Of a stretch of 64,000 nt of DNA, positions 3,501 to 55,645 are shown in pieces (within the stretch, counting starts at the first letter, position 1; every line of letters starts with the position of its first letter). A model generated the notes under the pieces. That model ran no database searches. It saw nothing but the letters and a program-made list of their open reading frames with translations, and was not told the origin of the DNA. Origin of the DNA: Nevskiales bacterium (GTDB lineage Bacteria; Pseudomonadota; Gammaproteobacteria; Nevskiales; JBOICV01); NCBI GenBank assembly GCA_050740255.1, contig JBOICV010000092.1, forward strand, positions 24,708 to 88,707. Reading direction: 5' to 3'. Both the position numbers and the translations under genes were made by a program.

Positions 3501-3507
3501 CTACTTT

Positions 3508-3541
3508 CCCCTCTCCCTCTGGGAGAGGGTACGGGTGAGGG
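3508..3541. repeat. REP-like palindromic element (CCCTCTCCC-tct-GGGAGAGGG + GGGTGAGGG tail)
   Basis: Perfect 9-nt inverted arms lie directly after the DUF3604 stop. Near-identical copies are at 22967-23002 and 35374-35407. Confidence 0.85.
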
Positions 3542-22961: not shown

Positions 22962-22966
22962 CTTTT

Positions 22967-23002
22967 TTCCCTCTCCCTCTGGGAGAGGGGCAGGGGTGAG
23001 GG
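22967..23002. repeat. REP-like palindromic element (same family as 3508-3541)
   Basis: The sequence ttCCCTCTCCCtctGGGAGAGGGgcaGGGGTGAGGG lies directly after the glyA stop. Confidence 0.85.
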
Positions 23003-23554: not shown

Positions 23555-24680
23555 GGCAGCAGATGCGCGCTTCATGGCGCGCGCTTTGGAATTGGCACAG
23601 CACGGGCTTTACACCACCCACCCCAATCCACGCGTCGGCTGCGTGCTGGTCAAAAACGGCGAGATTGTCGGTGAAGCCTGGCACGAACGCGCCGGTGAGC
23701 CGCACGCCGAGGTGCTCGCACTGCGCGCTGCGGGAGAGCAGGCGAAAGGCGCAACCGCTTACGTCACGTTGGAACCCTGCTGCCATCAGGGGCGTACCGG
23801 TCCGTGTACCGATGCCCTAATCAAGGCTGGCGTGACGCGTGTGATCGCGGCCATGCAGGACCCCAACCCGAAAGTAGCCGGCGGCGGCTTGGCGACATTG
23901 CGCGATACGGGGATCGGCGTTGAAAGCGGTCTGATGCAGGCGCAGGCCGAGTCGCTGAATCGCGGCTTCATCAGCCGCATGCGCCGACAGCGGCCCTGGG
24001 TCCGGCTCAAGCTGGCGATGAGCCTGGATGGCCGCACCGCTGCGGCCAATGGCGAAAGCCGCTGGATCACCGGTGAGCTGGCGCGGGAAGACGTGCATAG
24101 GCTGCGCGCTGAGTGCGGTGCGGTACTTACCAGTTCGGCGACGGTGCTGGCCGATGATCCTTCATTGACCGTGCGCAGTTTTTCTCTCCCTCCCCCCGGT
24201 GGGGAGGGGTTAGGGAAGGGGGGAGTCTTGATTCGGCAACCTGACCGGATTGTGCTGGATGCAAGGCTACGGGTGCCCGCCAGCGCAAAAGTCTGGGCAC
24301 CTGGGGCGCGCCGCTTCGTGCTTACGAGTGATCCGGATAAATCCGGAAGTCACGGCCCCGAAGTGCAAACCCTGCGCATTGCCGCGCAAGCCGGCCGGCT
24401 GGATCTCCGCCAGGCCCTGGCGACGCTAGCCGCATTCGAGATCAACGAGATATTGGTCGAATGCGGCCCGCGCCTGGCTGGTGCACTTCTGCAGGCGAAG
24501 CTCGTGGATGAGCTGACTATCTACGTCGCCCCCATCCTGTTGGGCGATAAGGCGCCGGGTTTGGCGCACTTGCCGGATGTTCAATCGCTGGCGCAACAGC
24601 TCGCGTTTCAAGTCACCGATGTCCGTGCTTTTGGCTCGGACTGGCGCATCATCGCGACTCCTCGCACGCAAAGCGTGTGA
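23544..24680 (+). CDS. ribD: Bifunctional diaminohydroxyphosphoribosylaminopyrimidine deaminase / 5-amino-6-(5-phosphoribosylamino)uracil reductase
   Basis: 378 aa. It has the deaminase motif [21 protein letters not shown] and the reductase part [27 protein letters not shown]. Confidence 0.95.
24184..24225. repeat. REP-like palindromic element lying in frame inside ribD
   Basis: The sequence is CCTCCCC-ccggt-GGGGAGG followed by ttaGGGAAGGGGGGAG. It encodes ..[14 protein letters not shown].. between the conserved TVR and RQP segments. Confidence 0.75.
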
Positions 24681-24692
24681 GAGAATAACGCG

Positions 24693-25313
24693 ATGTTCAC
24701 CGGGATTATTCAGGCCGTCGGCCAACTGCGCGCGCGCGAAGCGCAGGACGTGGATGCGCGCCTGTCCATCGCCAGCAGCAAACTTGAGCTTGCCGGCGTC
24801 AAGTTGGGGGATAGCATTGCCGTCAATGGCGTTTGTCTGACGGTTACCCGGCTGGAGCATGACGGCTTCTGGGCCGATGTGTCTGCAGAAACCTTGCGAC
24901 TCACGACGCTCGGCCAACTTGCAGTCGGCGCCGCTCTGAATCTGGAGAAAGCGCTGACGCTCAACCAGCCGCTGGGCGGACATTTGCTGAACGGGCATGT
25001 GGACGGGCTCGGCCAGGTGGTGAGCATCACCCCCGAGGGCCGCTCGCTGCAGATGGAGTTCGCCGCTCGGGACAGCCTGGCGCGGTATATCGCGCGCAAG
25101 GGTTCGATCGCGATTGATGGTGTCAGCCTCACCGTCAATCAAGTGCAGGGCCGCCGGTTCAGCGTCAATCTGGTGCCGCACAGCTTGCAGGAAACCAGCT
25201 TCGGCGCGCTCACCCTCGGCGCCTCGGTGAATCTGGAAGTGGATTTGCTGGCACGTTATCTGGAGCGCCTGTTCGAAGGGCAGTTGAGCACACGGCCCGG
25301 CCATGCTGCTTAA
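24693..25313 (+). CDS. ribE: Riboflavin synthase (alpha chain; B. subtilis nomenclature ribE, E. coli ribC)
   Basis: It starts MFTGIIQAVGQL and contains the duplicated lumazine-binding repeats GDSIAVNGVCLTV and GSIAIDGVSLTV. Confidence 0.95.
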   Translation: MFTGIIQAVGQLRAREAQDVDARLSIASSKLELAGVKLGDSIAVNGVCLTVTRLEHDGFWADVSAETLRLTTLGQLAVGAALNLEKALTLNQPLGGHLLNGHVDGLGQVVSITPEGRSLQMEFAARDSLARYIARKGSIAIDGVSLTVNQVQGRRFSVNLVPHSLQETSFGALTLGASVNLEVDLLARYLERLFEGQLSTRPGHAA

Positions 25314-27427: not shown

Positions 27428-28516
27428 GTGACCAACGAATTTGAGATTATCCGCCGCTACTTCCAGCGGCCCCCTAAGCGTCCGGACGTAGTGCTGGGTT
27501 CGGGCGATGACGCGGCGCTGTTGCAGCCGCCGCCCGGCATGCTGCTGGCTGCGACGACCGATACGCTGGTGGCGGGCCGGCATTTCCACGACGACTGGCC
27601 GGCGGCCGATATCGGCTGGCGGGCGCTGGCGGTGAATCTGAGCGATCTGGCGGCGATGGGTGCGCAACCCGCCTGGTTTACCTGCGCATTAACGGTCCCT
27701 GAAGCGGATGAAAAATGGCTCGCCGGGTTCGCTCAAGGCCTGTTTGAACTTGCGGCGCAATACCCGCTGGATCTGGTCGGCGGCAATCTAAGCTGCGGAC
27801 CGCTCAGCATCACGATTCAGGCTCTGGGGTTCGTAGCGGCAGAGAAAGCGTTGCGGCGCGACGCGGCCCGACCCGGCGATCTGATCTGTGTGACCGGCAC
27901 GCTCGGCGATGCGAGCTTGGCCTTGCAATTGCTCGATACCCGCCCCCCCAACCCTCCTTCGACAAGCTCAGGACAGGCTCTCCCGCAAGGGGAGGGGGAA
28001 CAGAGTTTTTCTCCTCCTCGCGCGGAGGGTGTAAGTAAAAATCTCCCTCCCCCTCGTGGGGAGGGATTAAGGGAGGGGGGCGCAACAGATGCGCAGCTTA
28101 TCTATCTAACACAGCGCCTGCGCCGTCCCACCCCGCGCATCGCGGCCGGTTTGGCGCTGGCTGGCGTGGCGCATGCCGCGATAGATATTTCGGACGGCCT
28201 GGCGGCCGATTTGGGCCACGTGTTGGCCGCCAGTGGCGTCGGGGCTGAAATCCGCACCAACAAGCTCCCGATGTCTCCCGCGTTTGCACGCCTCGCGCCT
28301 CGCGCCTCGCGCCTCCCGCTACAACTTTCCGGCGGCGACGATTACGAGCTATGTATCTGCCTGCCGCAGGATAAACTAGCCGCCGTGCAGGCCCGCTTGA
28401 ATGTGCCGCTGACCGTTATTGGTGCGGTCACAGCTACAGCGGGACTGCGCGATCTAAGCACTCCGGGAGGTCAACGCCTGACACCGGCGGGTTACGACCA
28501 CTTTCCCAATATATGA
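27428..28516 (+). CDS. thiL: Thiamine-monophosphate kinase carrying an internal repeat-derived insertion of about 40 aa
   Basis: The GTG start gives VTNEFEIIRRYFQRP..LGSGDDAALL..TDTLVAGRHF..AVNLSDLAAMGA. The track ORF from 27305 overlaps nusB and is too long. Confidence 0.9.
   Translation: MTNEFEIIRRYFQRPPKRPDVVLGSGDDAALLQPPPGMLLAATTDTLVAGRHFHDDWPAADIGWRALAVNLSDLAAMGAQPAWFTCALTVPEADEKWLAGFAQGLFELAAQYPLDLVGGNLSCGPLSITIQALGFVAAEKALRRDAARPGDLICVTGTLGDASLALQLLDTRPPNPPSTSSGQALPQGEGEQSFSPPRAEGVSKNLPPPRGEGLREGGATDAQLIYLTQRLRRPTPRIAAGLALAGVAHAAIDISDGLAADLGHVLAASGVGAEIRTNKLPMSPAFARLAPRASRLPLQLSGGDDYELCICLPQDKLAAVQARLNVPLTVIGAVTATAGLRDLSTPGGQRLTPAGYDHFPNI
27940..28082. repeat. Composite of three REP-like hairpin units lying in frame inside thiL
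   Basis: Three units are visible. Unit 1 is CTCTCCC-gcaag-GGGAGGG. Unit 2 is a CTCCTC..GGAGGG unit. Unit 3 is a perfect 9-bp TCCCTCCCC-ctcgt-GGGGAGGGA plus attaaGGGAGGGGGG. A ccttcgacaagctcaggacagg stretch precedes them. Confidence 0.8.
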
Positions 28517-33034: not shown

Positions 33035-33512
33035 TTTCTTCCGCGGATTTCTCGTCGTCGCGCTGATGTTGCTGGCGCATTCCGCGCTGGCTGCACCGAA
33101 AGCCGTAGCGGAATTGACCCTGAACTATCAGAAGTCGGCGGACCGGCAGATGTCCGATGGCGGACATCTATTTGCTCGATGCCAGTACCTTGGCTCGGGC
33201 GATGGCACAGCGACCGGGGCCATTGCCGGCCGCGTCGGCTGGGATTTGCACGAGGATCAGTCACGCGACGACCTGCACCCGACCCAGTTCCGCGGCTTCA
33301 TCGAGCGTGACGGCAAGCGCCATCCGTTCCAGATCATTGGCGTGTTTACGCCGGAACCCGGCCAGCCGATCCGTCGCTGGAAGCTCACCGGGACCATCGT
33401 TTTTGATGACAACGCACTCTTCACCGGCCAGCATGCCCCCGTAACCGGTTACGTTGAAACCGGAAGCTGGAAGCATCGCTACACTGTGCTGGTGGACAGT
33501 GACGTCAACTAA
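33012..33512 (+). CDS. Secreted protein of unknown function (mer-operon member)
   Basis: An ATG lies 6 nt after a strong RBS aaggag. The signal peptide is MLKPAAYDFFRGFLVVALMLLAHSALAAP. No motif was recognised. It overlaps both neighbouring genes. Confidence 0.65.
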   Translation: MLKPAAYDFFRGFLVVALMLLAHSALAAPKAVAELTLNYQKSADRQMSDGGHLFARCQYLGSGDGTATGAIAGRVGWDLHEDQSRDDLHPTQFRGFIERDGKRHPFQIIGVFTPEPGQPIRRWKLTGTIVFDDNALFTGQHAPVTGYVETGSWKHRYTVLVDSDVN

Positions 33513-34137
33513 GTGCGTGGCCCGTATCCTGAGCCTGTTCCCGAAGCTGGATAATGCAGCTCAGCGCCTTTCGCTTGCGCTGTACCGCCAGCTGGCTCGG
33601 GGCGAACCGGTATCCACAACCCGACTCGCCGCCGCCGTTGATCGCGACGCATCAGCGGTAAGCGAGCAATTAAGCCAATGGCCCGGCGTGTTTTACGACG
33701 AGCAGGGTGCCGTGATCGGCTACTGGGGCTTGAGTATCCACCCGATGGCGCACCGGTTTCGGGTTAACGGTCGCAATCTCTACACCTGGTGCGCGTGGGA
33801 CAGCCTGTTCATCCCCGAGTTGCTTGGCGAGACGGCGCACGTTGAGTCGTTCTGCCCGGTGACGCGGACACCCATCCGGCTCACCGTCACGCCGCAAGGC
33901 GTCGAAGACCTACAGCCAGCAACCGCAGTGATGTCGCTGATGCTGCCGGCCCACAGCAGCGTGATGTCGGACATCGCCGCACGCTTCTGCCACTACGTAC
34001 ACTTCTTTGAATCCGCGAACGCTGCAACGCGTTGGCTGCCCGAGAACCCCTCAACAATGGTTGTCGGAGTCGGGGAAGGGTTCGAGCTGGGGCGAATGAA
34101 GAACGACATTCAGTATCTTGACCAAGCGTTAGCCTGA
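33499..34137 (+). CDS. merB: Organomercurial (alkylmercury) lyase MerB (start GTG 33499 or GTG 33517)
   Basis: The catalytic contexts RNLYTWCAWDSLFIP (Cys96/Asp99 equivalent) and ARFCHYVHFFES (Cys159 equivalent) are present. The N-terminus LALYRQLARGEPVS resembles MerB. Confidence 0.85.
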   Translation: MTSTKCVARILSLFPKLDNAAQRLSLALYRQLARGEPVSTTRLAAAVDRDASAVSEQLSQWPGVFYDEQGAVIGYWGLSIHPMAHRFRVNGRNLYTWCAWDSLFIPELLGETAHVESFCPVTRTPIRLTVTPQGVEDLQPATAVMSLMLPAHSSVMSDIAARFCHYVHFFESANAATRWLPENPSTMVVGVGEGFELGRMKNDIQYLDQALA

Positions 34138-35346: not shown

Positions 35347-35373
35347 GAATTTTATGAGGAGCGATTTTCCTTA

Positions 35374-35407
35374 TCCCCTCTCCCTTTGGGAGAGGATGGG
35401 TGAGGGT
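35374..35407. repeat. REP-like palindromic element between tRNA-Arg and tRNA-His
   Basis: The sequence is tCCCCTCTCCCtttGGGAGAGGatGGGTGAGGG, the same family as 3508 and 22967. Confidence 0.8.
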
Positions 35408-35488: not shown

Positions 35489-35586
35489 TTTTTTGTGTTA
35501 CGCAGGCGCGCGTTACATTAAAATGCGCGCCCCTGTTGGATGTTTTGGCACAGGATGTGCCAACGCGAAGGCCTGGCCTGAGCGAA

Positions 35587-35616
35587 GGCAATCGAAAATG
35601 ACATTTTTCGATTGCC
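35587..35616. repeat. Perfect 12-bp-stem hairpin GGCAATCGAAAA-tgacat-TTTTCGATTGCC in the tRNA-His/tRNA-Lys spacer
   Basis: Read directly from the sequence. The 171-nt spacer also holds three shorter hairpins (GCGCGC..GCGCGC, TGGCAC..GTGCCA, GCCGTG..CACGGC). Confidence 0.7.
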
Positions 35617-35659
35617 GTGGCGGCACGGCGGCAGGATGCCCCGTCGCCGCGGCAGAAAT

Positions 35660-35735
35660 GGGCCGTTAGCTCAGTTGGTAGAGCAGGAGACTCTTAATCT
35701 CTTGGTCGTAGGTTCGACTCCTACACGGCCCACCA
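35660..35735 (+). tRNA. tRNA-Lys (anticodon CTT)
   Basis: Acceptor GGGCCGT/ACGGCCC, anticodon arm GGAGA-CTCTTAA-TCTCT, T-arm GTAGG-TTCGACT-CCTAC, encoded CCA. Confidence 0.93.
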
Positions 35736-35789
35736 CTTTCCGCGGTTACCAACTTCCAAGTTATTCTGAGAAGCGGCCTTACGGCCGCA

Positions 35790-35894
35790 TTGGTCGTAGG
35801 TTGCTCGTCTCATCCCTGAGACGAGTCCTATGGACTCGCTACGCTCGCTCGGTTTTGCTCCCGGCAAAACCGTCGACTCCTACACGGCCCACCA
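35790..35894 (+). pseudogene. Duplicated 3' portion of tRNA-Lys (variable loop to CCA) interrupted in the T-loop by a 71-nt insert
   Basis: TTGGTCGTAGGTT (35790-35802) and CGACTCCTACACGGCCCACCA (35874-35894) are identical to 35702-35735. No 5' acceptor strand was found upstream. The downstream flank ctttcctcggtt mirrors ctttccgcggtt after the intact tRNA. Confidence 0.75.
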
Positions 35895-35908
35895 TTACTT
35901 TCCTCGGT

Positions 35909-37513
35909 TCATCGGTTTACGGGGGTGGCGAGTCCGCCGGTAGGCGCGGCGGCGGCGCCGAGGTACTTATGTTCGATGGCGAGCGGGTCCAGGCGGCGAA
36001 ACCAGATATCGAACCCGATCTGCAGATAAAGAATGACTTCGCGCCAGCGCCGGGCGTAAGCCTCCAGCAGACGCCACCGAAATAGCCGGTGTAACGGAAT
36101 CAACTCGTACTCGTACAGCTTCAACAGCAGGTTGAAAAGCTGCATGCGCCGCAAGTCGTGCTGTTGTACGCGATAAATGACGCGTTTGCTTATGCTCATG
36201 TGCGCAAACATCCTGGACCGCATGGCGTGCTGGAACAAAGCGGCCGAGGAAAAAAAGCGCAGCATGCGTTGACCGGCAGGGTCTTCGGCCAGCTCCTCGA
36301 CTTTGCCCCGCGGTAGGTCGTAGCGGAAATAACGCTGGCTGGCGCCCGACTTGAGCACGAACAGCAGCGGTGTCTGCCGGAACATCAGGCGCAGAGGCCA
36401 AGGCACAGCGCGCGTGAATTTGGCGAAATACTCGGCTATCGGCGGCAAGGATACCTGCGTCTTGTCTTCCTTTAACTGGGCGTCGCGCAGCTTGTCCTGG
36501 ATTTGCAACCGGTACTCCGCCAGGTGGCGCTCGCGCTGGCTGAAATAATCGTGCGACTGCAAAGTGAAGCCCAGTTTTTCATCCCAAGAGTCGCCGCTGA
36601 TCATCGTAACGACTTCGGTTACAGGTACGCCGGCCTGCTGGTTTGCGAGTTCTGCAAAGTCACGCGCTACGGTGTCCGGTGTCTGGATGTGGAGGTTGTA
36701 GTGATAGGTATCGGCATGCAGATGACAGTGATTGCTGGCGAAGGGGATCGCGTAACGCGGTTTGATGTTATTTGCAAACGCGGCAAACAGTTCGCTATAC
36801 CGCGTCGGATCATCAGCGTATATATTTACCGCATCGGTGAACTCGTAGCACAATCTGTCATTAGCCGAGCTGTGGCTGCGCAGCAGGAAATCCACGCGCG
36901 GGTGGCGTTCCTTCAACTGCTTAAGCGGTAGGCCCATCAGTTTGGAGTCGTTGGCGTTCAGCACGACCTGCTGCCCCGCTTCGATAACCAGCGCGCTGTC
37001 GGTGGTCGGCAGGAAGTGATAAGAGCTGACCCGGAAATCCGGAGCGATTGGAAAGCACCCGCCGTGGGGCAGTTCAATCACCTGATCGAATTTCATCCCG
37101 TGCAAGTCGTCGCGCATGCGCGTGAAATGATCTTTTGGGATGACAACCGGAGTGTTGCGCGGAAATTTGCGCAAGCTCGGCCCGTGAAAATGATCCCAGT
37201 GGAGGTGGGTCAGGAAGATATAGTCGGGTCGCAGGCTTTCGAGCAACTGTGGCGACACCGGCGGATAGTTCCACCACGAGCGCCAGTAGCAACTGCCCAC
37301 CAGCCAGGGATCGATCAGAATTTGCCTGCCTGCGTGCTCGAGCAGCAGGCCCGCATGAGACAGAATCGTAAATTTCACTGCGCCGACAAATCCGGTCCTT
37401 ATAGAATCGTTAATGATACTGCGTACACCGGCATTTAACGGCCTGTTAATGACGGGGCCGATGCGAGATGCGCCGCGAACGCTGCCGAAGTCCCGAAAAG
37501 CCTGACTTGGCAC
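35909..37513 (-). CDS. MBL-fold metallo-hydrolase with a C-terminal region of about 250 aa of unknown function (start GTG 37513 or GTG 37378)
   Basis: It has the segment KFTILSHAGLLLEHAGRQILIDPWL and the HxHxDH motif FLTHLHWDHFHG. The C-terminal half has no motif I recognise. The gene looks less GC-rich than its neighbours by eye. Confidence 0.75.
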   Translation of the reverse strand: MPSQAFRDFGSVRGASRIGPVINRPLNAGVRSIINDSIRTGFVGAVKFTILSHAGLLLEHAGRQILIDPWLVGSCYWRSWWNYPPVSPQLLESLRPDYIFLTHLHWDHFHGPSLRKFPRNTPVVIPKDHFTRMRDDLHGMKFDQVIELPHGGCFPIAPDFRVSSYHFLPTTDSALVIEAGQQVVLNANDSKLMGLPLKQLKERHPRVDFLLRSHSSANDRLCYEFTDAVNIYADDPTRYSELFAAFANNIKPRYAIPFASNHCHLHADTYHYNLHIQTPDTVARDFAELANQQAGVPVTEVVTMISGDSWDEKLGFTLQSHDYFSQRERHLAEYRLQIQDKLRDAQLKEDKTQVSLPPIAEYFAKFTRAVPWPLRLMFRQTPLLFVLKSGASQRYFRYDLPRGKVEELAEDPAGQRMLRFFSSAALFQHAMRSRMFAHMSISKRVIYRVQQHDLRRMQLFNLLLKLYEYELIPLHRLFRWRLLEAYARRWREVILYLQIGFDIWFRRLDPLAIEHKYLGAAAAPTGGLATPVNR

Positions 37514-37626
37514 ACACTTGGCTTATCCCTATACTGAATTTCGGTGCCAGGAGTGCCTAGGGTGCGCGGGCGTAGATCTGCGTGCCAGGGGTGATAATCG
37601 GGATTACGGATTTTGGGAGGAGAGCA

Positions 37627-38088
37627 ATGCAATCGTTGAAATGGGGGATCGGGACCTTGCTGGCGGCGCTGACGCTTGCGGCGCAAGCCGGCACACCGCT
37701 GCAGCTTGAACCGCAGATGGGTTTTTATGTCACCCGGTATTTCGGCGCCACGGCTGCTGTGCCGACGGAATTCGGTTTTCAGTTCAACTATCGCGATACG
37801 ACCGGATATGCCTACCCGGCGTATGGATTCAACAGCCGGCCGGCCTTGCTGGATCTGCGCTTCAATAGCGGCGGCGTGACGGCGCTGAACATCTCTGGCG
37901 TCAATGCATTGATGCCGACCTACGTGCTCGGTCAGGACGAGGGCGCGGAAGACGGTGACGGGTTCCTAAGCAATATCAACTGGGGCCTGGTAGGCATGGT
38001 CGCGCTAGGCGGCGGTATTTACTATGCGTCGGAAAATTATCGCGATGATCGGGAAGATGATCGCGCACGCGCGCAGGGCGGCGGCTAG
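37627..38088 (+). CDS. Secreted/membrane-anchored hypothetical protein
   Basis: The ATG follows the RBS gggaggag. The signal peptide is MQSLKWGIGTLLAALTLAAQA. It has a C-terminal TM segment WGLVGMVALGGGIYYA and an acidic/basic tail. Confidence 0.6.
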   Translation: MQSLKWGIGTLLAALTLAAQAGTPLQLEPQMGFYVTRYFGATAAVPTEFGFQFNYRDTTGYAYPAYGFNSRPALLDLRFNSGGVTALNISGVNALMPTYVLGQDEGAEDGDGFLSNINWGLVGMVALGGGIYYASENYRDDREDDRARAQGGG

Positions 38089-38308
38089 CCCATATCGCGG
38101 AGGCAATACCCAGCCGGAGCTGCTTTGATTCCGCTCGGTCAAACAACGGGGTGAATCCCGGTTGCCCGCCGCGGCTTGTTAGAGAATACTCAGGCTCATC
38201 GGCTTGGGTTTAGAATGTGTTGAGGCCAGGACAGGCCATGAACAAGATGTAACCGCACTGACCGCCGTCTGTATATCTTGTATCTTGCATATAAGGAATC
38301 TGGGGATT

Positions 38309-39397
38309 ATGAATACCGCAAATCATCTGCAACGCGTTCTCCTATTGGCGCTCACTCTGGGCATCGCACCGCTGGCCGTGGCGCAGGAAGAGGAAGCAGC
38401 AGATAGTGGCGGCGATGACGCTGCCGCCGCGTCCGGCGAGATTGACGACCGCACCTATATCGGCGTGCTCGGCGGGCTGACCGAGCCGGACAGCGATCGA
38501 CCACAGGACTACGACGATGCCTATACGCTATCCATCATCGTCGGCTCGCAGAAGTCCGAAAAGCTGAATACCGAGTGGAATCTCAGCTACAGCACCTTCG
38601 AATACAGCATCGGCGTGATCGAGTTCGCCCATGACTTCCAGGTCAATATCGGTTACGACATTCTTTATTTCCTGAACCGCGATGGCTGGGCGCCCTTTGG
38701 CCTGGCCGGCGTGGCGCTGACCCACGACGCACGTCAGACGTCCGATTCCCAGCACGCCAGCGTCAACGTCGGCGCGGGTGTGATCAAGCCGTTCAACGAC
38801 CACGGCGCGGCGTTCCGCGCCGAAGCCCGTTATCTCTACCATTTCGATGACAAAGACGGCAACGACGATCCGGCCGACATCCGTTTGGTGGCGGGCATCA
38901 CCGTGCCGCTTACGGCCAAGCCGGTCCCGCTGCCTCCGCCCCCACCGCCCCCCACCGCGGTTGATAGCGACGGCGACGGCGTGGTGGATGAGAAAGACAA
39001 GTGCCCCGGCACGCTGGCCGGCGTGAAGGTGGACGGCGATGGCTGCGCCGTGCCGCAGGTGCTCAAGCTGAACGGCGTGAGCTTCGACTTCGATTCGGTG
39101 CGCGTCGGCAAGAACGCCCGCACCATCCTGGATGAGGTGAGCGAAGGCATCAAAGGCCAGCCCAGCATGCAGGTCGAAATCGCCGGTCATACCGACAACT
39201 ACGGCGATGAAACCTACAACCAGCAGTTGTCCGAGCGCCGTGCCAAAGCGGTGCGCGACTATCTGGTGGAAAAAGGTGCGCCGGACGCCAACTTCACCTC
39301 CAAGGGTTATGGCGAAGCAGAGCCGGTGGTGGCGAATGACACCGAGGACGGGCGCGAAGAGAATCGTCGCGTCGAGTTCCGCATCCTGTCGCAATAA
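38309..39397 (+). CDS. OmpA-family outer-membrane protein with a Pro-rich hinge and thrombospondin type-3-like Asp repeats
   Basis: The ATG follows the RBS aaggaa. The signal peptide ends LAVAQ. It contains PLPPPPPPPT, DSDGDGVVDEKDKCPGT, and the OmpA_C motifs GHTDNYGDETYNQQLSERRA and NRRVEFRI. Confidence 0.9.
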   Translation: MNTANHLQRVLLLALTLGIAPLAVAQEEEAADSGGDDAAAASGEIDDRTYIGVLGGLTEPDSDRPQDYDDAYTLSIIVGSQKSEKLNTEWNLSYSTFEYSIGVIEFAHDFQVNIGYDILYFLNRDGWAPFGLAGVALTHDARQTSDSQHASVNVGAGVIKPFNDHGAAFRAEARYLYHFDDKDGNDDPADIRLVAGITVPLTAKPVPLPPPPPPPTAVDSDGDGVVDEKDKCPGTLAGVKVDGDGCAVPQVLKLNGVSFDFDSVRVGKNARTILDEVSEGIKGQPSMQVEIAGHTDNYGDETYNQQLSERRAKAVRDYLVEKGAPDANFTSKGYGEAEPVVANDTEDGREENRRVEFRILSQ

Positions 39398-39415
39398 TTA
39401 TCAGGACTACGACAT

Positions 39416-39886
39416 ATGAATACAGCAATGCTTCGCAAGCTCGCAGCGGTCGCTATCGCGGCCGTTGCACTGAGTCTCAACGCCTGCCATTCGACCGATA
39501 CTGAGGGTGGAATTGATCCGACTCAGCCCGGTGGCGGTCCTGGCGCCGGCGGCGGGCAAGGTGGCTGTCCGCCCGGCAGCGTTTTGAACGGCGCACAATG
39601 CACGGTCACCGATCTGGTGGATGAGCTGGCCGAGGTACTGGCGGGCACACCGCTGGAAGGCTTCATTCAGTGCCTGGATCCCACCGTGAACGACCTGGCG
39701 GAAGGGCCAGATGTGCTGCTGCAGGCGCTGTTGGACGCGCTCGCTAACCAGGCCGCGGATCCCGCTGCCGTTACGGACGCGGCGACTGCTTTAGCGGACG
39801 CGCTGACGTCCTTGACTGTAAACGTACCTAATCTGCTGCTTGCTTTGACCGGTGATCCGGCGGCGATTGCCGCGTGCACCACCTGA
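39416..39886 (+). CDS. Lipoprotein of unknown function, as delimited by an in-frame TGA
   Basis: Lipobox VALSLNAC, a Gly/Pro-rich linker, then an Ala/Leu/Asp-rich helical region. It ends ..DPAAIAACTT*. Confidence 0.7.
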   Translation: MNTAMLRKLAAVAIAAVALSLNACHSTDTEGGIDPTQPGGGPGAGGGQGGCPPGSVLNGAQCTVTDLVDELAEVLAGTPLEGFIQCLDPTVNDLAEGPDVLLQALLDALANQAADPAAVTDAATALADALTSLTVNVPNLLLALTGDPAAIAACTT

Positions 39887-40108
39887 GGTGGTAGTGGAGG
39901 GGGCGGTGGTGGTGGTACAACTCCCCCGTTTGATGCCAGCGCGCTCTGCGCCGTTCCCGTGTTGGATCCGGCCATCGTAGGTGCTGCAGGCGGTTCCTGC
40001 ACTGGCGGTCCTGGCGGCGGTGCAACCCCGGTGGAGCCGACCGCGTTGTGCGCGATACCGTCACTTGGACCGGCGCTTGCCGGCATCGCAGGCGTGACCT
40101 GCCCGTAA
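39887..40108 (+). other. 74-codon open extension in the same frame as the preceding lipoprotein gene (readthrough segment or recently truncated C-terminus)
   Basis: It translates to GGSGGGGGGGTTPPFDASALCAVPVLDPAIVGAAGGSCTGGPGGGATPVEPTALCAIPSLGPALAGIAGVTCP*. There is no internal start codon with an RBS. The terminator follows this segment, not the TGA. Confidence 0.55.
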
Positions 40109-48377: not shown

Positions 48378-48424
48378 ACCCCGCGCGGCTGACGGGAACC
48401 CATCGGGTATAATTCGCGCCCCTA

Positions 48425-48535
48425 AATAAAGACGCGCAGCGTCCTTGTCCTCCCTCCCCTTGAGGGAGGGGTAGCGCGCAGCATCCTTATGCTCTCTCCC
48501 CGCTTGCGGGGAGAGAATAGAGCGAGGGGCAGGAT
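48425..48535. repeat. Two tandem composite REP-like units upstream of tRNA-Leu
   Basis: The units are ataaagaCGCGCAGCgTCCTTgTCCTCCCTCCCCttgaGGGAGGGG and tagCGCGCAGCaTCCTTatgCTCTCTCCCCgcttgcGGGGAGAG. Each has a GCGCAGC-TCCTT leader plus a palindrome. Confidence 0.8.
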
Positions 48536-48541
48536 TTCCGT

Positions 48542-48626
<85 letters not shown>

Positions 48627-48628
48627 GA

Positions 48629-48705
48629 AGATAAAGACGCGCAGCGGCCTTATCCTCCCTCCCCTTGAGGGAGGGAGAAGAGGGAGGGGTAGGGCGCAGC
48701 GGCAA
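48629..48705. repeat. Composite REP-like unit downstream of tRNA-Leu (direct repeat of 48425-48470)
   Basis: ataaagacgcgcagcgGccttAtcctccctccccttgagggaggg matches the upstream copy with 2 mismatches over 44 nt. GGTAGGGCGCAGC follows, against GGTAGCGCGCAGC upstream. Confidence 0.8.
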
Positions 48706-55584: not shown

Positions 55585-55645
55585 GTACGCTTTTTCGAAA
55601 GGGCGCGACAGGGATGTCGCGATCTTTTACAGGGATGTAGATACT

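Follow-up and report, generated by a model that had tools for sequence, protein, structure and literature searches.

A duplicated tRNA-Lys 3' end in a Nevskiales bacterium is split by a member of a dispersed family of hairpin mini-elements

In the 64,000-nt stretch of DNA analysed here (the window; positions 24,708 to 88,707 of contig JBOICV010000092.1, Nevskiales bacterium assembly GCA_050740255.1), a Pro-Arg-His-Lys tRNA cluster lies downstream of folD, and its last gene, tRNA-Lys(CTT), is followed at a spacing of 54 nt by a second copy of its own 3' end, which is broken in two by a 71-nt, hairpin-rich insert (Table 1). The split copy together with its insert is referred to below as a unit. 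The 5' piece of the copy, TTGGTCGTAGGTT, is an exact repeat for which 0.05 matches were expected by chance, and the 3' piece, CGACTCCTACACGGCCCACCA, is also exact, with a chance expectation of 0. With the insert left out, the copy matches the tRNA 3' end and flank at 46 of 49 positions, the alignment consisting of 34 identical nt, a 3-nt indel, and then ctttccGcggtt against ctttccTcggtt. Because 12 nt of the 3' flank are thus also duplicated, the duplication extends beyond the CCA. The insert separates T55 from C56 of the T-loop (GGTT^CGACT, the caret marking the interruption here and below), and its 71 nt occur once in the window. An earlier, preliminary description of the window had already noticed the repeated 34 nt, the similar 3' flank, the T-loop break and the GCGGCC-ttac-GGCCGC hairpin ahead of the copy, all of which were found as described. 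ARAGORN and Rfam, the latter both at the gathering threshold and in E-value mode, recognised the intact tRNA-Lys and found no tRNA or known RNA over 35736-35908. No terminator-like site was found between tRNA-Lys and the split unit.

Table 1. Features at the 3' end of the tRNA cluster (window coordinates)
Feature	Position	Strand	Basis	Remark
tRNA-Lys(CTT)	35660-35735	+	ARAGORN; Rfam RF00005, 74.1 bits	source of the duplicated 3' end
tRNA 3' flank, first copy, ctttccgcggtt	35736-35747	+	sequence; alignment	
Hairpin GCGGCC-ttac-GGCCGC	35773-35788	+	sequence; fold	
Second tRNA-end copy, 5' piece (variable loop, T-stem 5' strand, T54-T55)	35790-35802	+	exact repeat	
71-nt insert (copy of the hairpin mini-element)	35803-35873	+	covariance models R1, R2	
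P1 hairpin, loop (CA)UCCC(UG)	35807-35822, extended here to 35804-35825	+	fold; covariation	
P2 hairpin GAGUCC-UAU-GGACUC	35823-35837	+	fold; alignment rows	
P3 hairpin CGGUUUUGCU-CCC-GGCAAAACCG, conserved loop GC-UCCC-GG	35850-35872	+	fold; covariation	
Second tRNA-end copy, 3' piece (T-loop remainder, T-stem 3' strand, acceptor 3' strand, ACCA)	35874-35894	+	exact repeat	
tRNA 3' flank, second copy, ctttcctcggtt	35898-35909	+	sequence; alignment	
Convergent MBL-fold hydrolase gene	35909-37513	-	Pfam, homologues, synteny	stop codon abuts the unit

Judged by its matches to two covariance models, the insert is one copy of a small, hairpin-rich, non-coding repeat family. The seed of model R1 included the window copy, while that of model R2 consisted of 11 copies from phages, E. 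coli and a metagenomic locus (L018, described below), the window copy and those of the related metagenome-assembled genome (MAG) contig L001 being left out. R1 matched positions 35796-35873 with 93.1 bits, and R2 matched the same positions with 50.6 bits (E 8e-12) as its sole match in the window; the stretch recognised by both models takes in the GTAGGTT leader. Units of L001 were matched by R2 with 85.5 and 75.7 bits. Compared with shuffled sequences, the 173-nt region 35736-35908 folds with z = -3.7 and the insert alone with z = -4.5. All three stems that had been seen by eye in the insert are present in the folds, although the first two overlap by 4 nt and cannot both form at full length.

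Members of the family are typically 70-83 nt long and form three or four hairpins. Their consensus reads (G)GTT, G/A-TTCG, P1 with the loop CA-UCCC-UG, UCA, P2 as CCCC-UNCG-GGGG, often an extra mini-hairpin, CG(C/U)UC, P3 as an A/U-rich stem with the loop GC-UCCC-GG, and a final U. The window copy carries both conserved loops, CA-UCCC-UG at 35811-35818 and GC-UCCC-GG at 35857-35864, and at the place of P2 it has a hairpin of other sequence that lacks the UCACCCC of most members. In an alignment of 17 copies, 97.7% of the pair cells hold standard pairs and double changes occur at 12 of the 16 pairs, a level of covariation reached by none of 500 shuffles, whereas pairing drops to 27-47% when the partners are slid by 1-3 columns; the alignment was fitted to the model and is hence biased toward the structure, but the margin remains large. 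The loops are kept across Beta- and Gammaproteobacteria and phages, and the P2 loops, on the sense strand of the element, are mostly UNCG. The extra mini-hairpin between P2 and P3, when read on the antisense strand, is GCGTAGC in the window (35839-35845) and GCGAAGC in E. coli rrnB (L062 366-378) and in the first unit of L001. The DNA sequence d(GCGNAGC) forms a mini-hairpin of unusual stability, and the strand signals of the family are accordingly mixed, with UNCG loops on the sense strand and the GCGNAGC type on the antisense.

Copies of the insert elsewhere, which the preliminary description had thought worth looking for, were found in phages, in a metagenome and in E. coli. Two E. coli contexts were reached by BLAST with a phage copy. 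In the first, an ERIC sequence in the preT-yeiS intergenic region holds an 80-nt copy of the element (57.4 bits, recognised by both models), antisense to both preT and yeiS. Of 5426 complete E. coli genomes, 649 carry this copy. The region comes in three allelic forms: one without ERIC and element, one with ERIC only, and one in which ERIC holds the element and which is 78 nt longer than that with ERIC only. Without the element, the ERIC sequence is TCTGCG-TT-CGCTC, and in the filled allele it is TCTGCG-(GGTT...GGATTTGT)-CGCTC. In the second context, a copy of 42.4 bits lies in the spacer between terminators T1 and T2 of K-12 rrnB, after T1 and antisense to the operon, where it splits a second 5S 3' end into GAGTAGG and AACTGCCAGGCATCAAAT, with 73 nt between them, as against the continuous GAGTAGGGAACTGCCAGGCATCAAAT in rrfB. 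The rrnB arrangement is fixed in E. coli, with a median of two places per genome for this type of copy, and an uninterrupted second 5S end was found in 0 of the 5426 genomes. The window and rrnB share one design, in which the gene of a stable RNA is followed, after a short spacer, by a second copy of its own 3' end with the element inside it. On the element strand the uninterrupted counterparts are GTAGGTT^CGAC for the tRNA, GCGTT^CGCT for ERIC and GGCAGTT^CCCT for 5S, and from the GTT^C common to these three sites, the ones with a known reference, we infer a target preference.

Ten strong copies were recovered from phage or prophage contigs with R1 and one IMG/VR pattern scan, none of them near a tRNA, and patterns for the 3' and the 5' junction found no tRNA-linked copies in viral contigs. 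In two groups of phage contigs (L041/L042 and L036/L043), the element follows a tail gene and directly precedes the gene that opens the lysis cassette, in the same orientation as both and just ahead of a ribosome-binding site; the related phage AcaML1 is without the element. A junction pattern search of JGI metagenomes led to a homologue (L018/L029) in an intergenic region of 380 nt; the surrounding 13 kb contain no tRNA, and no T-arm half comes after this copy. In another group of loci from this search (L021/L023/L028), 32 nt are identical to the window, namely 12 nt of the tRNA-derived leader and the first 20 nt of the insert, with no tRNA at the locus. The 20-mer GGCCGCATTGGTCGTAGGTT of the unit had no exact match in GTDB species genomes or JGI metagenomes, and BLAST searches of plasmids with the 173-nt region and with the L028 variant gave no match.

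Two of these loci show further structure. At L018 1927-2270, the element stands amid nested inverted repeats, CCTGTAAAGCCGCC / GGTGGCTTTACAGG within GGGTCTGTTGCCGTTT / AAACGGCAACAGACCC, and this palindrome looks like a larger unit of the MITE (miniature inverted-repeat transposable element) kind that was struck by the mini-element. At L028 2891-2700 (minus strand), P3 is replaced by CCATTTCG...CGAAATGG around ~100 nt of more hairpins, which suggests inserts nested within the element, and a Pseudomonas-type REP, GTAGGAGCGAGCTTGCTCGCGAA, lies 250 nt beyond this copy.

The genes beyond the split copy encode, in order, the MBL hydrolase, a hypothetical protein, an OmpA-domain protein, a second hypothetical protein, an RND MFP and an AcrB-type pump. 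An exact look-up of the window MBL protein gave no entry, and one partial homologue is 100% identical to it. Identical gene order beside tRNA-Lys is found in two related MAGs, L001 (MBL protein 73% identical) and L003 (65%); in L003 no unit intervenes and the MBL gene directly adjoins the tRNA. In L006 (MBL protein 83% identical), an intact T-arm stands 36 nt ahead of the MBL stop codon, with no unit at the MBL-proximal end. Further relatives were approached through FolD homologues, but their contigs stopped within the tRNA cluster or lacked synteny. No integrase or recombinase was found near either copy, the flanking open reading frames being identified by Pfam only as FolD, MerB, MBL hydrolase, OmpA and RND pump, and the GC content shows only a shallow dip around the copy, from ~0.60 to 0.56. 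A direct repeat of the kind expected of an att site is present (34 + 12 nt), and the preliminary description had taken it as a possible attL/attR boundary of an island, with 35909-40108 as accessory genes. This reading does not agree with the absence of an integrase, with the gap of only 54 nt, or with the conserved order of the downstream genes next to tRNA-Lys in L001 and L003, and the synteny break in relatives that an island would imply was not seen.

The contig L001 carries three units after tRNA-Lys, each composed of ...GGCCGCA, TTGGTCGTAGGTT, a hairpin insert and CGATCCCTACACGGCCCACCA; GGCCGCA, which is the 3' arm of the GCGGCC hairpin plus an A, stands directly before the 13-mer in the window unit and in 3 of the 3 units of L001. 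The insert of unit 1 is 71 nt long. Unit 2 has two tandem inserts of 73 and 93 nt behind a single leader, the inner one more decayed, and unit 3 is truncated at the MBL stop codon, in independent agreement with the Logan contig L002. The 55-nt spacer behind the tRNA recurs identically behind unit 2, and recombination between repeats has therefore remodelled the L001 array recently. In the T-loop, the units have the version of the tRNA beside them (CGATCCC for L001, CGACTCC for the window). On the tRNA side, 7 + 13 + 21 nt are identical in all four units of window and L001, while their inserts have diverged to about 75% by eye count, with the hairpins kept through compensatory changes.

An uninterrupted copy, GGCCGCA-TTGGTCGTAGGTTCGACTCC, was found in none of the relatives reached. 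A pattern search of GTDB genomes for tRNA-Lys ends split in the T-loop by a gap of 55-85 nt returned nine loci, none of them split; these consisted of adjacent tRNA-Lys genes, runs of N or unbroken partial copies. Unbroken, element-free partial 3' copies of tRNA-Lys do occur downstream of the gene in L011, L008, L009 and L013, with one such copy behind the same Arg-His-Lys cluster in L011, and therefore spare copies, which are common, exist without the element. The copies in L008 (Rehaibacterium terrae), L009 (Vulcaniibacterium thermophilum) and L013 form tandem arrays of partial tRNA-Lys(UUU) copies with a period of about 69 nt and at least five copies in L009; they keep remnants of the anticodon stem, the T-arm and the CCA, are without the anticodon, and are accompanied by partial 5' copies upstream of the gene.

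Other features were observed around the tRNA clusters of the relatives. In L075 (972-2809), a contig of the same MAG as L001, a gene for a 590-aa large serine recombinase ends 12 nt or less from the 3' end of tRNA-Pro, beside folD, which suggests that this genome has an element integrated between tRNA-Pro and the genes for tRNA-Arg, -His and -Lys. On the other side of folD, L075 has a mer operon (MerB, MerC, MerA-like); the window has MerB at 33454-34137. In L003 (11791-12496), a higB-type toxin gene and a partner gene lie between tRNA-His and tRNA-Lys.

The arrangement in the window is probably the result of a small element having inserted at GTT^C of a pre-existing spare duplicate of the tRNA-Lys end, the element being non-autonomous, as it has no gene of its own. 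A non-functional duplicate of the tRNA-Lys 3' end and flank would have been present first, just downstream of the real gene, having arisen by short tandem duplication or as an old att-type scar. The element would then have landed at the GTT^C offered by the T-loop sequence GGTT^CGA, an insertion that would be tolerated in the duplicate and lost by selection in the working tRNA. Subsequent recombination between the direct repeats would grow arrays or delete units, which would explain the three units in one relative and none in two others. Movement of the family by insertion would fit its unrelated contexts and the ERIC alleles, the filled and ERIC-only forms of which differ by a clean 78 nt, and the tandem, partly decayed inserts of L001 unit 2 would fit repeated use of a site recognised from its left side, an architecture like that of IS200/IS605-type elements. 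We infer both movement by insertion and a duplication that preceded it. A target for a small mobile insert was among the options given in the preliminary description, and it is the one favoured here. The same description had also considered that the insert might be simply another common repeat inserted at random; the insert does belong to a widespread family, but the family is low-copy and stands at GTT^C in all three referenced cases. Any present role would most likely be that of a barrier to read-through or to 3' exonucleases, formed by the stable hairpins between the convergent tRNA operon and MBL gene.

Several observations weigh against this explanation. The family has no linked transposase or recombinase and lacks both terminal inverted repeats and a clear target duplication, and its copy number is low, with one copy in the 64 kb of the window and a median of 1-2 per genome per type in E. 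coli. At the ERIC junction (GCG-GG-TT...), 80 nt stand in place of TT, which is no simple insertion behind GTT. The compensatory stems and conserved loops look more like long-term structural selection than recent copy-and-paste, and identical tRNA-side nucleotides beside diverged inserts need either gene conversion or selection. No uninterrupted copy was found in the 5426 E. coli genomes or in the relatives reached, which leaves the duplication-first order a presumption.

The unit could alternatively be a functional small or cis-acting RNA transcribed with the tRNA operon, an unlikely reading but one with genuine support, a structured tRNA-like RNA having also been named in the preliminary description. 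Its tRNA pieces (T-stem halves, acceptor 3' strand and CCA) would serve as a tRNA-like handle for RNase P, RNase Z or exonucleases, and its UCCC loops would pair with G-rich sites such as ribosome-binding sites, or bind protein. The strong covariation, the predominance of UNCG in the sense-strand P2 loops, the conservation of the loops in Beta-/Gammaproteobacteria and phages, and the invariance of the tRNA-side nucleotides in four units despite divergence of the insert are all in accord with such a role, as are the orientation of the element, which is that of the tRNA operon with no terminator-like site between them, and that of the phage copies directly ahead of the next gene. The closest Rfam family, RF02902, is a small RNA (sRNA) entry, but it matches on the opposite strand. 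Orientation to transcription varies within the family, the copies at K-12 rrnB (after T1), preT and yeiS being antisense, and the element is polymorphic in E. coli and the units are absent from L003 and L006. In a single-sequence fold, the upstream GGCCG can pair with CGGCC in the manner of an acceptor stem; the GCGGCC/GGCCGC hairpin upstream competes with this proposed pairing, which moreover never varies, so that no covariation signal is possible. That the split copy is instead a decayed attR or attL of an island at tRNA-Lys, with the 71 nt as island remnant, is very unlikely. Integrases of the T-loop class cross over within the T-loop, and the repeat runs from the variable loop to past the CCA, like the typical identity blocks of tRNA att sites of this class, reportedly given by Williams 2002 (Nucleic Acids Res); its break falls inside the T-loop, the GGCCGCA before the 13-mer is common to all units like the arm of an element, and the cluster is a hot spot in relatives, with the serine recombinase of L075 at tRNA-Pro and higBA between the His and Lys genes of L003. 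The window differs from such sites, however, in having no integrase by Pfam, no cargo and no synteny break, the downstream genes being syntenic core genes, and its repeat is split by an unrelated element, a complete family member that is also found in non-att places (ERIC, rrnB, phage late regions). After site-specific integration, the T-loop would be whole at both junctions rather than broken by foreign DNA at one site. An att scar may be the source of the 34 + 12-nt duplicate but fails as an account of the 71 nt.

It is also conceivable, though highly improbable, that duplication and insertion were a single event, in which the element homes into the 3' parts of stable-RNA genes (the T-loop, the 5S end) and the displaced end is copied or carried along so as to restore the gene, so that every insertion leaves an intact gene and a split copy. 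The composite design is seen in two distant lineages at two different stable RNAs, an uninterrupted spare copy was found in neither, and the T-arm of the units is always that of the local tRNA; in addition, L028 has the 12-nt tRNA-derived leader joined to the first 20 nt of the window element at a locus free of tRNA. Most members (ERIC, phages, L018), however, are without any duplicated flank, unbroken spare tRNA-Lys ends occur in other taxa that lack the element, the process has no known mechanism or enzyme, and two cases could arise by chance if spare copies simply offer GTT^C as a safe landing site. The composite is seen in Betaproteobacteria (at tRNA-Lys, with up to three units) and in E. 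coli (at the 5S of rrnB), and it is quite unlikely that an intact stable-RNA gene followed by a split copy of its 3' end is a designed product rather than two accidents, whether of homing with gene restoration or as a processing handle that releases a structured UCCC-loop RNA from stable-RNA operon transcripts.

The insert in the window adds a new lineage and a new context to a family of which the ERIC interruptions, at least, were already known and which also occupies the rrnB T1-T2 spacer. Insertions of ~70 bp in ERIC (IRU) sequences of enterobacteria, with good RNA folding kept, were reportedly described by Cromie, Collins & Leach 1997 and by Sharp 1997 (Mol Microbiol 24:1311-1315). A passage of a later article cites these 1997 papers on ERIC interruption (PMC3696847). 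The preT-yeiS insert is of the same family as that of the window, and is polymorphic, well-folding and placed at an internal site; unlike it, the window copy sits in a tRNA-end duplicate. The rrnB T1-T2 spacer has the same design, as there too a copy of a stable-RNA 3' end just downstream of the gene is split by a family member. There, however, the element is antisense to the RNA gene, which in the window it follows in sense, and the left 5S piece is only 7 nt long. The tRNA-linked units also differ from one relative to the next, in contrast to the fixed arrangement of E. coli.

None of the copies of the element scores high enough for the threshold of an Rfam family. RF02902, AaHKsRNA22 (Aggregatibacter sRNA 22), has the same order of hairpins and joining sequences when its opposite strand is read; its full-length antisense alignments to three members of the element family score 28.6-31.9 bits, against a gathering score of 39.8, and it gave no match to the window copy at E up to 10. 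RF02902 is probably a Pasteurellaceae relative of the element family, to judge from these alignments. Behind tyrT, E. coli has tandem units (rtT RNA, Rfam RF00391) that each close with the 3' terminal nucleotides of tRNA-Tyr and are co-transcribed with the gene and processed. The arrays in L001, Rehaibacterium and Vulcaniibacterium resemble these tyrT units in ending in tRNA 3' nucleotides; there is, however, no sequence relation and no Rfam match, and in the tyrT units no hairpin element interrupts the T-loop. REP/BIME elements with RAYT transposases, and miniature elements derived from IS200/IS605, are reportedly treated in Nunvar 2010, Ton-Hoang 2012 and Barabas 2008. By architecture, the present element may be compared with these in its shortness, its hairpins near both ends on one strand, its intergenic positions, its lack of inverted ends and target duplication, and its insertion 3' of a short specific sequence, and the upstream GTAG is reminiscent of the REP 5' tetranucleotide. 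Unlike REP/BIME, it has no linked Y1 transposase and far fewer copies, and its loops rather than its stems are conserved.

Four other identities were considered and set aside. A hammerhead or other small ribozyme was dropped by eye, since the core motifs CUGA and GAAA show no conservation from copy to copy. BoxC was rejected because the element has a median of only 1-2 copies per genome per type searched, as compared with the 22-32 copies of the 56-bp BoxC (PMC2267715), and RU-3 of E. coli because it is REP-like (PMC2759123). The minus-strand loops CAGGGAUG and CCGGGAGC recall a CsrA/Rsm sponge, which is offered as a mere remark, the orientation being inconsistent and CsrA evidence lacking in this organism.

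Other repeats and hairpins lie near tRNA genes in the window and in its relatives. Hairpins with the loop CAGGAUG or CAGGGAUG on the tRNA strand occur in the His-Lys spacer (35539-35657, plus strand) and the Val-Asp spacer (55609-55616 and 55630-55637), with similar hairpins before tRNA-Arg in L001 (12422, 12394), and these are possible CsrA-like protein-binding or processing sites. The His-Lys spacer shows a weak resemblance to RsmW, an Rfam family of Rsm-type sRNAs (20.7 bits, E 0.22), below the gathering score of 52. Around tRNA-Leu(TAG) (48542-48626) there is a 58-nt repeat with 88% identity between its copies at 48413-48470 and 48618-48675, of which the downstream copy begins within the last 9 nt of the tRNA; the upstream copy, with a CCTCCCTCCCC/GGGGAGGGAGG hairpin, looks like a displaced tRNA end and flank. 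REP-like intergenic hairpins, CCCTCTCCC-TCT-GGGAGAGGG and the related CCCTCCCC/GGGGAGGG, are found at 3505-3529, 22965-22989 and 35372-35396, as well as at 24185-24223 and 28042-28080; one of them lies between tRNA-Arg and tRNA-His, and the motif is also present in L001 near 12560. For the tRNA-Arg of L001 (12505-12487 and ~12160-12145, minus strand), the first 19 nt are repeated ~120 nt upstream and the last 16 nt (CCTGCCAGGCGCGCCA) ~125 nt downstream, with hairpin-rich DNA between. In L074 (~300-125, minus strand; GCA_973686405.1), an extra copy of the 5' part of tRNA-Pro (38 nt, as far as the anticodon) precedes the intact gene, with ~140 nt rich in GGA hairpins between them, a 5'-half duplicate broken at the anticodon loop.

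For the tRNA-Lys locus, these results remove a false lead, as there is no island boundary at the split copy. They link an odd scar to a little-studied element in ERIC and in the rrnB T1-T2 terminator cassette of E. coli that is much used in cloning vectors. The family is small, strongly structured and present in Beta- and Gammaproteobacteria and phages, and no curated model captures it. In annotation, split tRNA ends should be checked for the element before att sites are called. The family is a good test case for the spread and site choice of hairpin mini-elements, and the parallel between the split tRNA-Lys and the split 5S is the part most worth pursuing.

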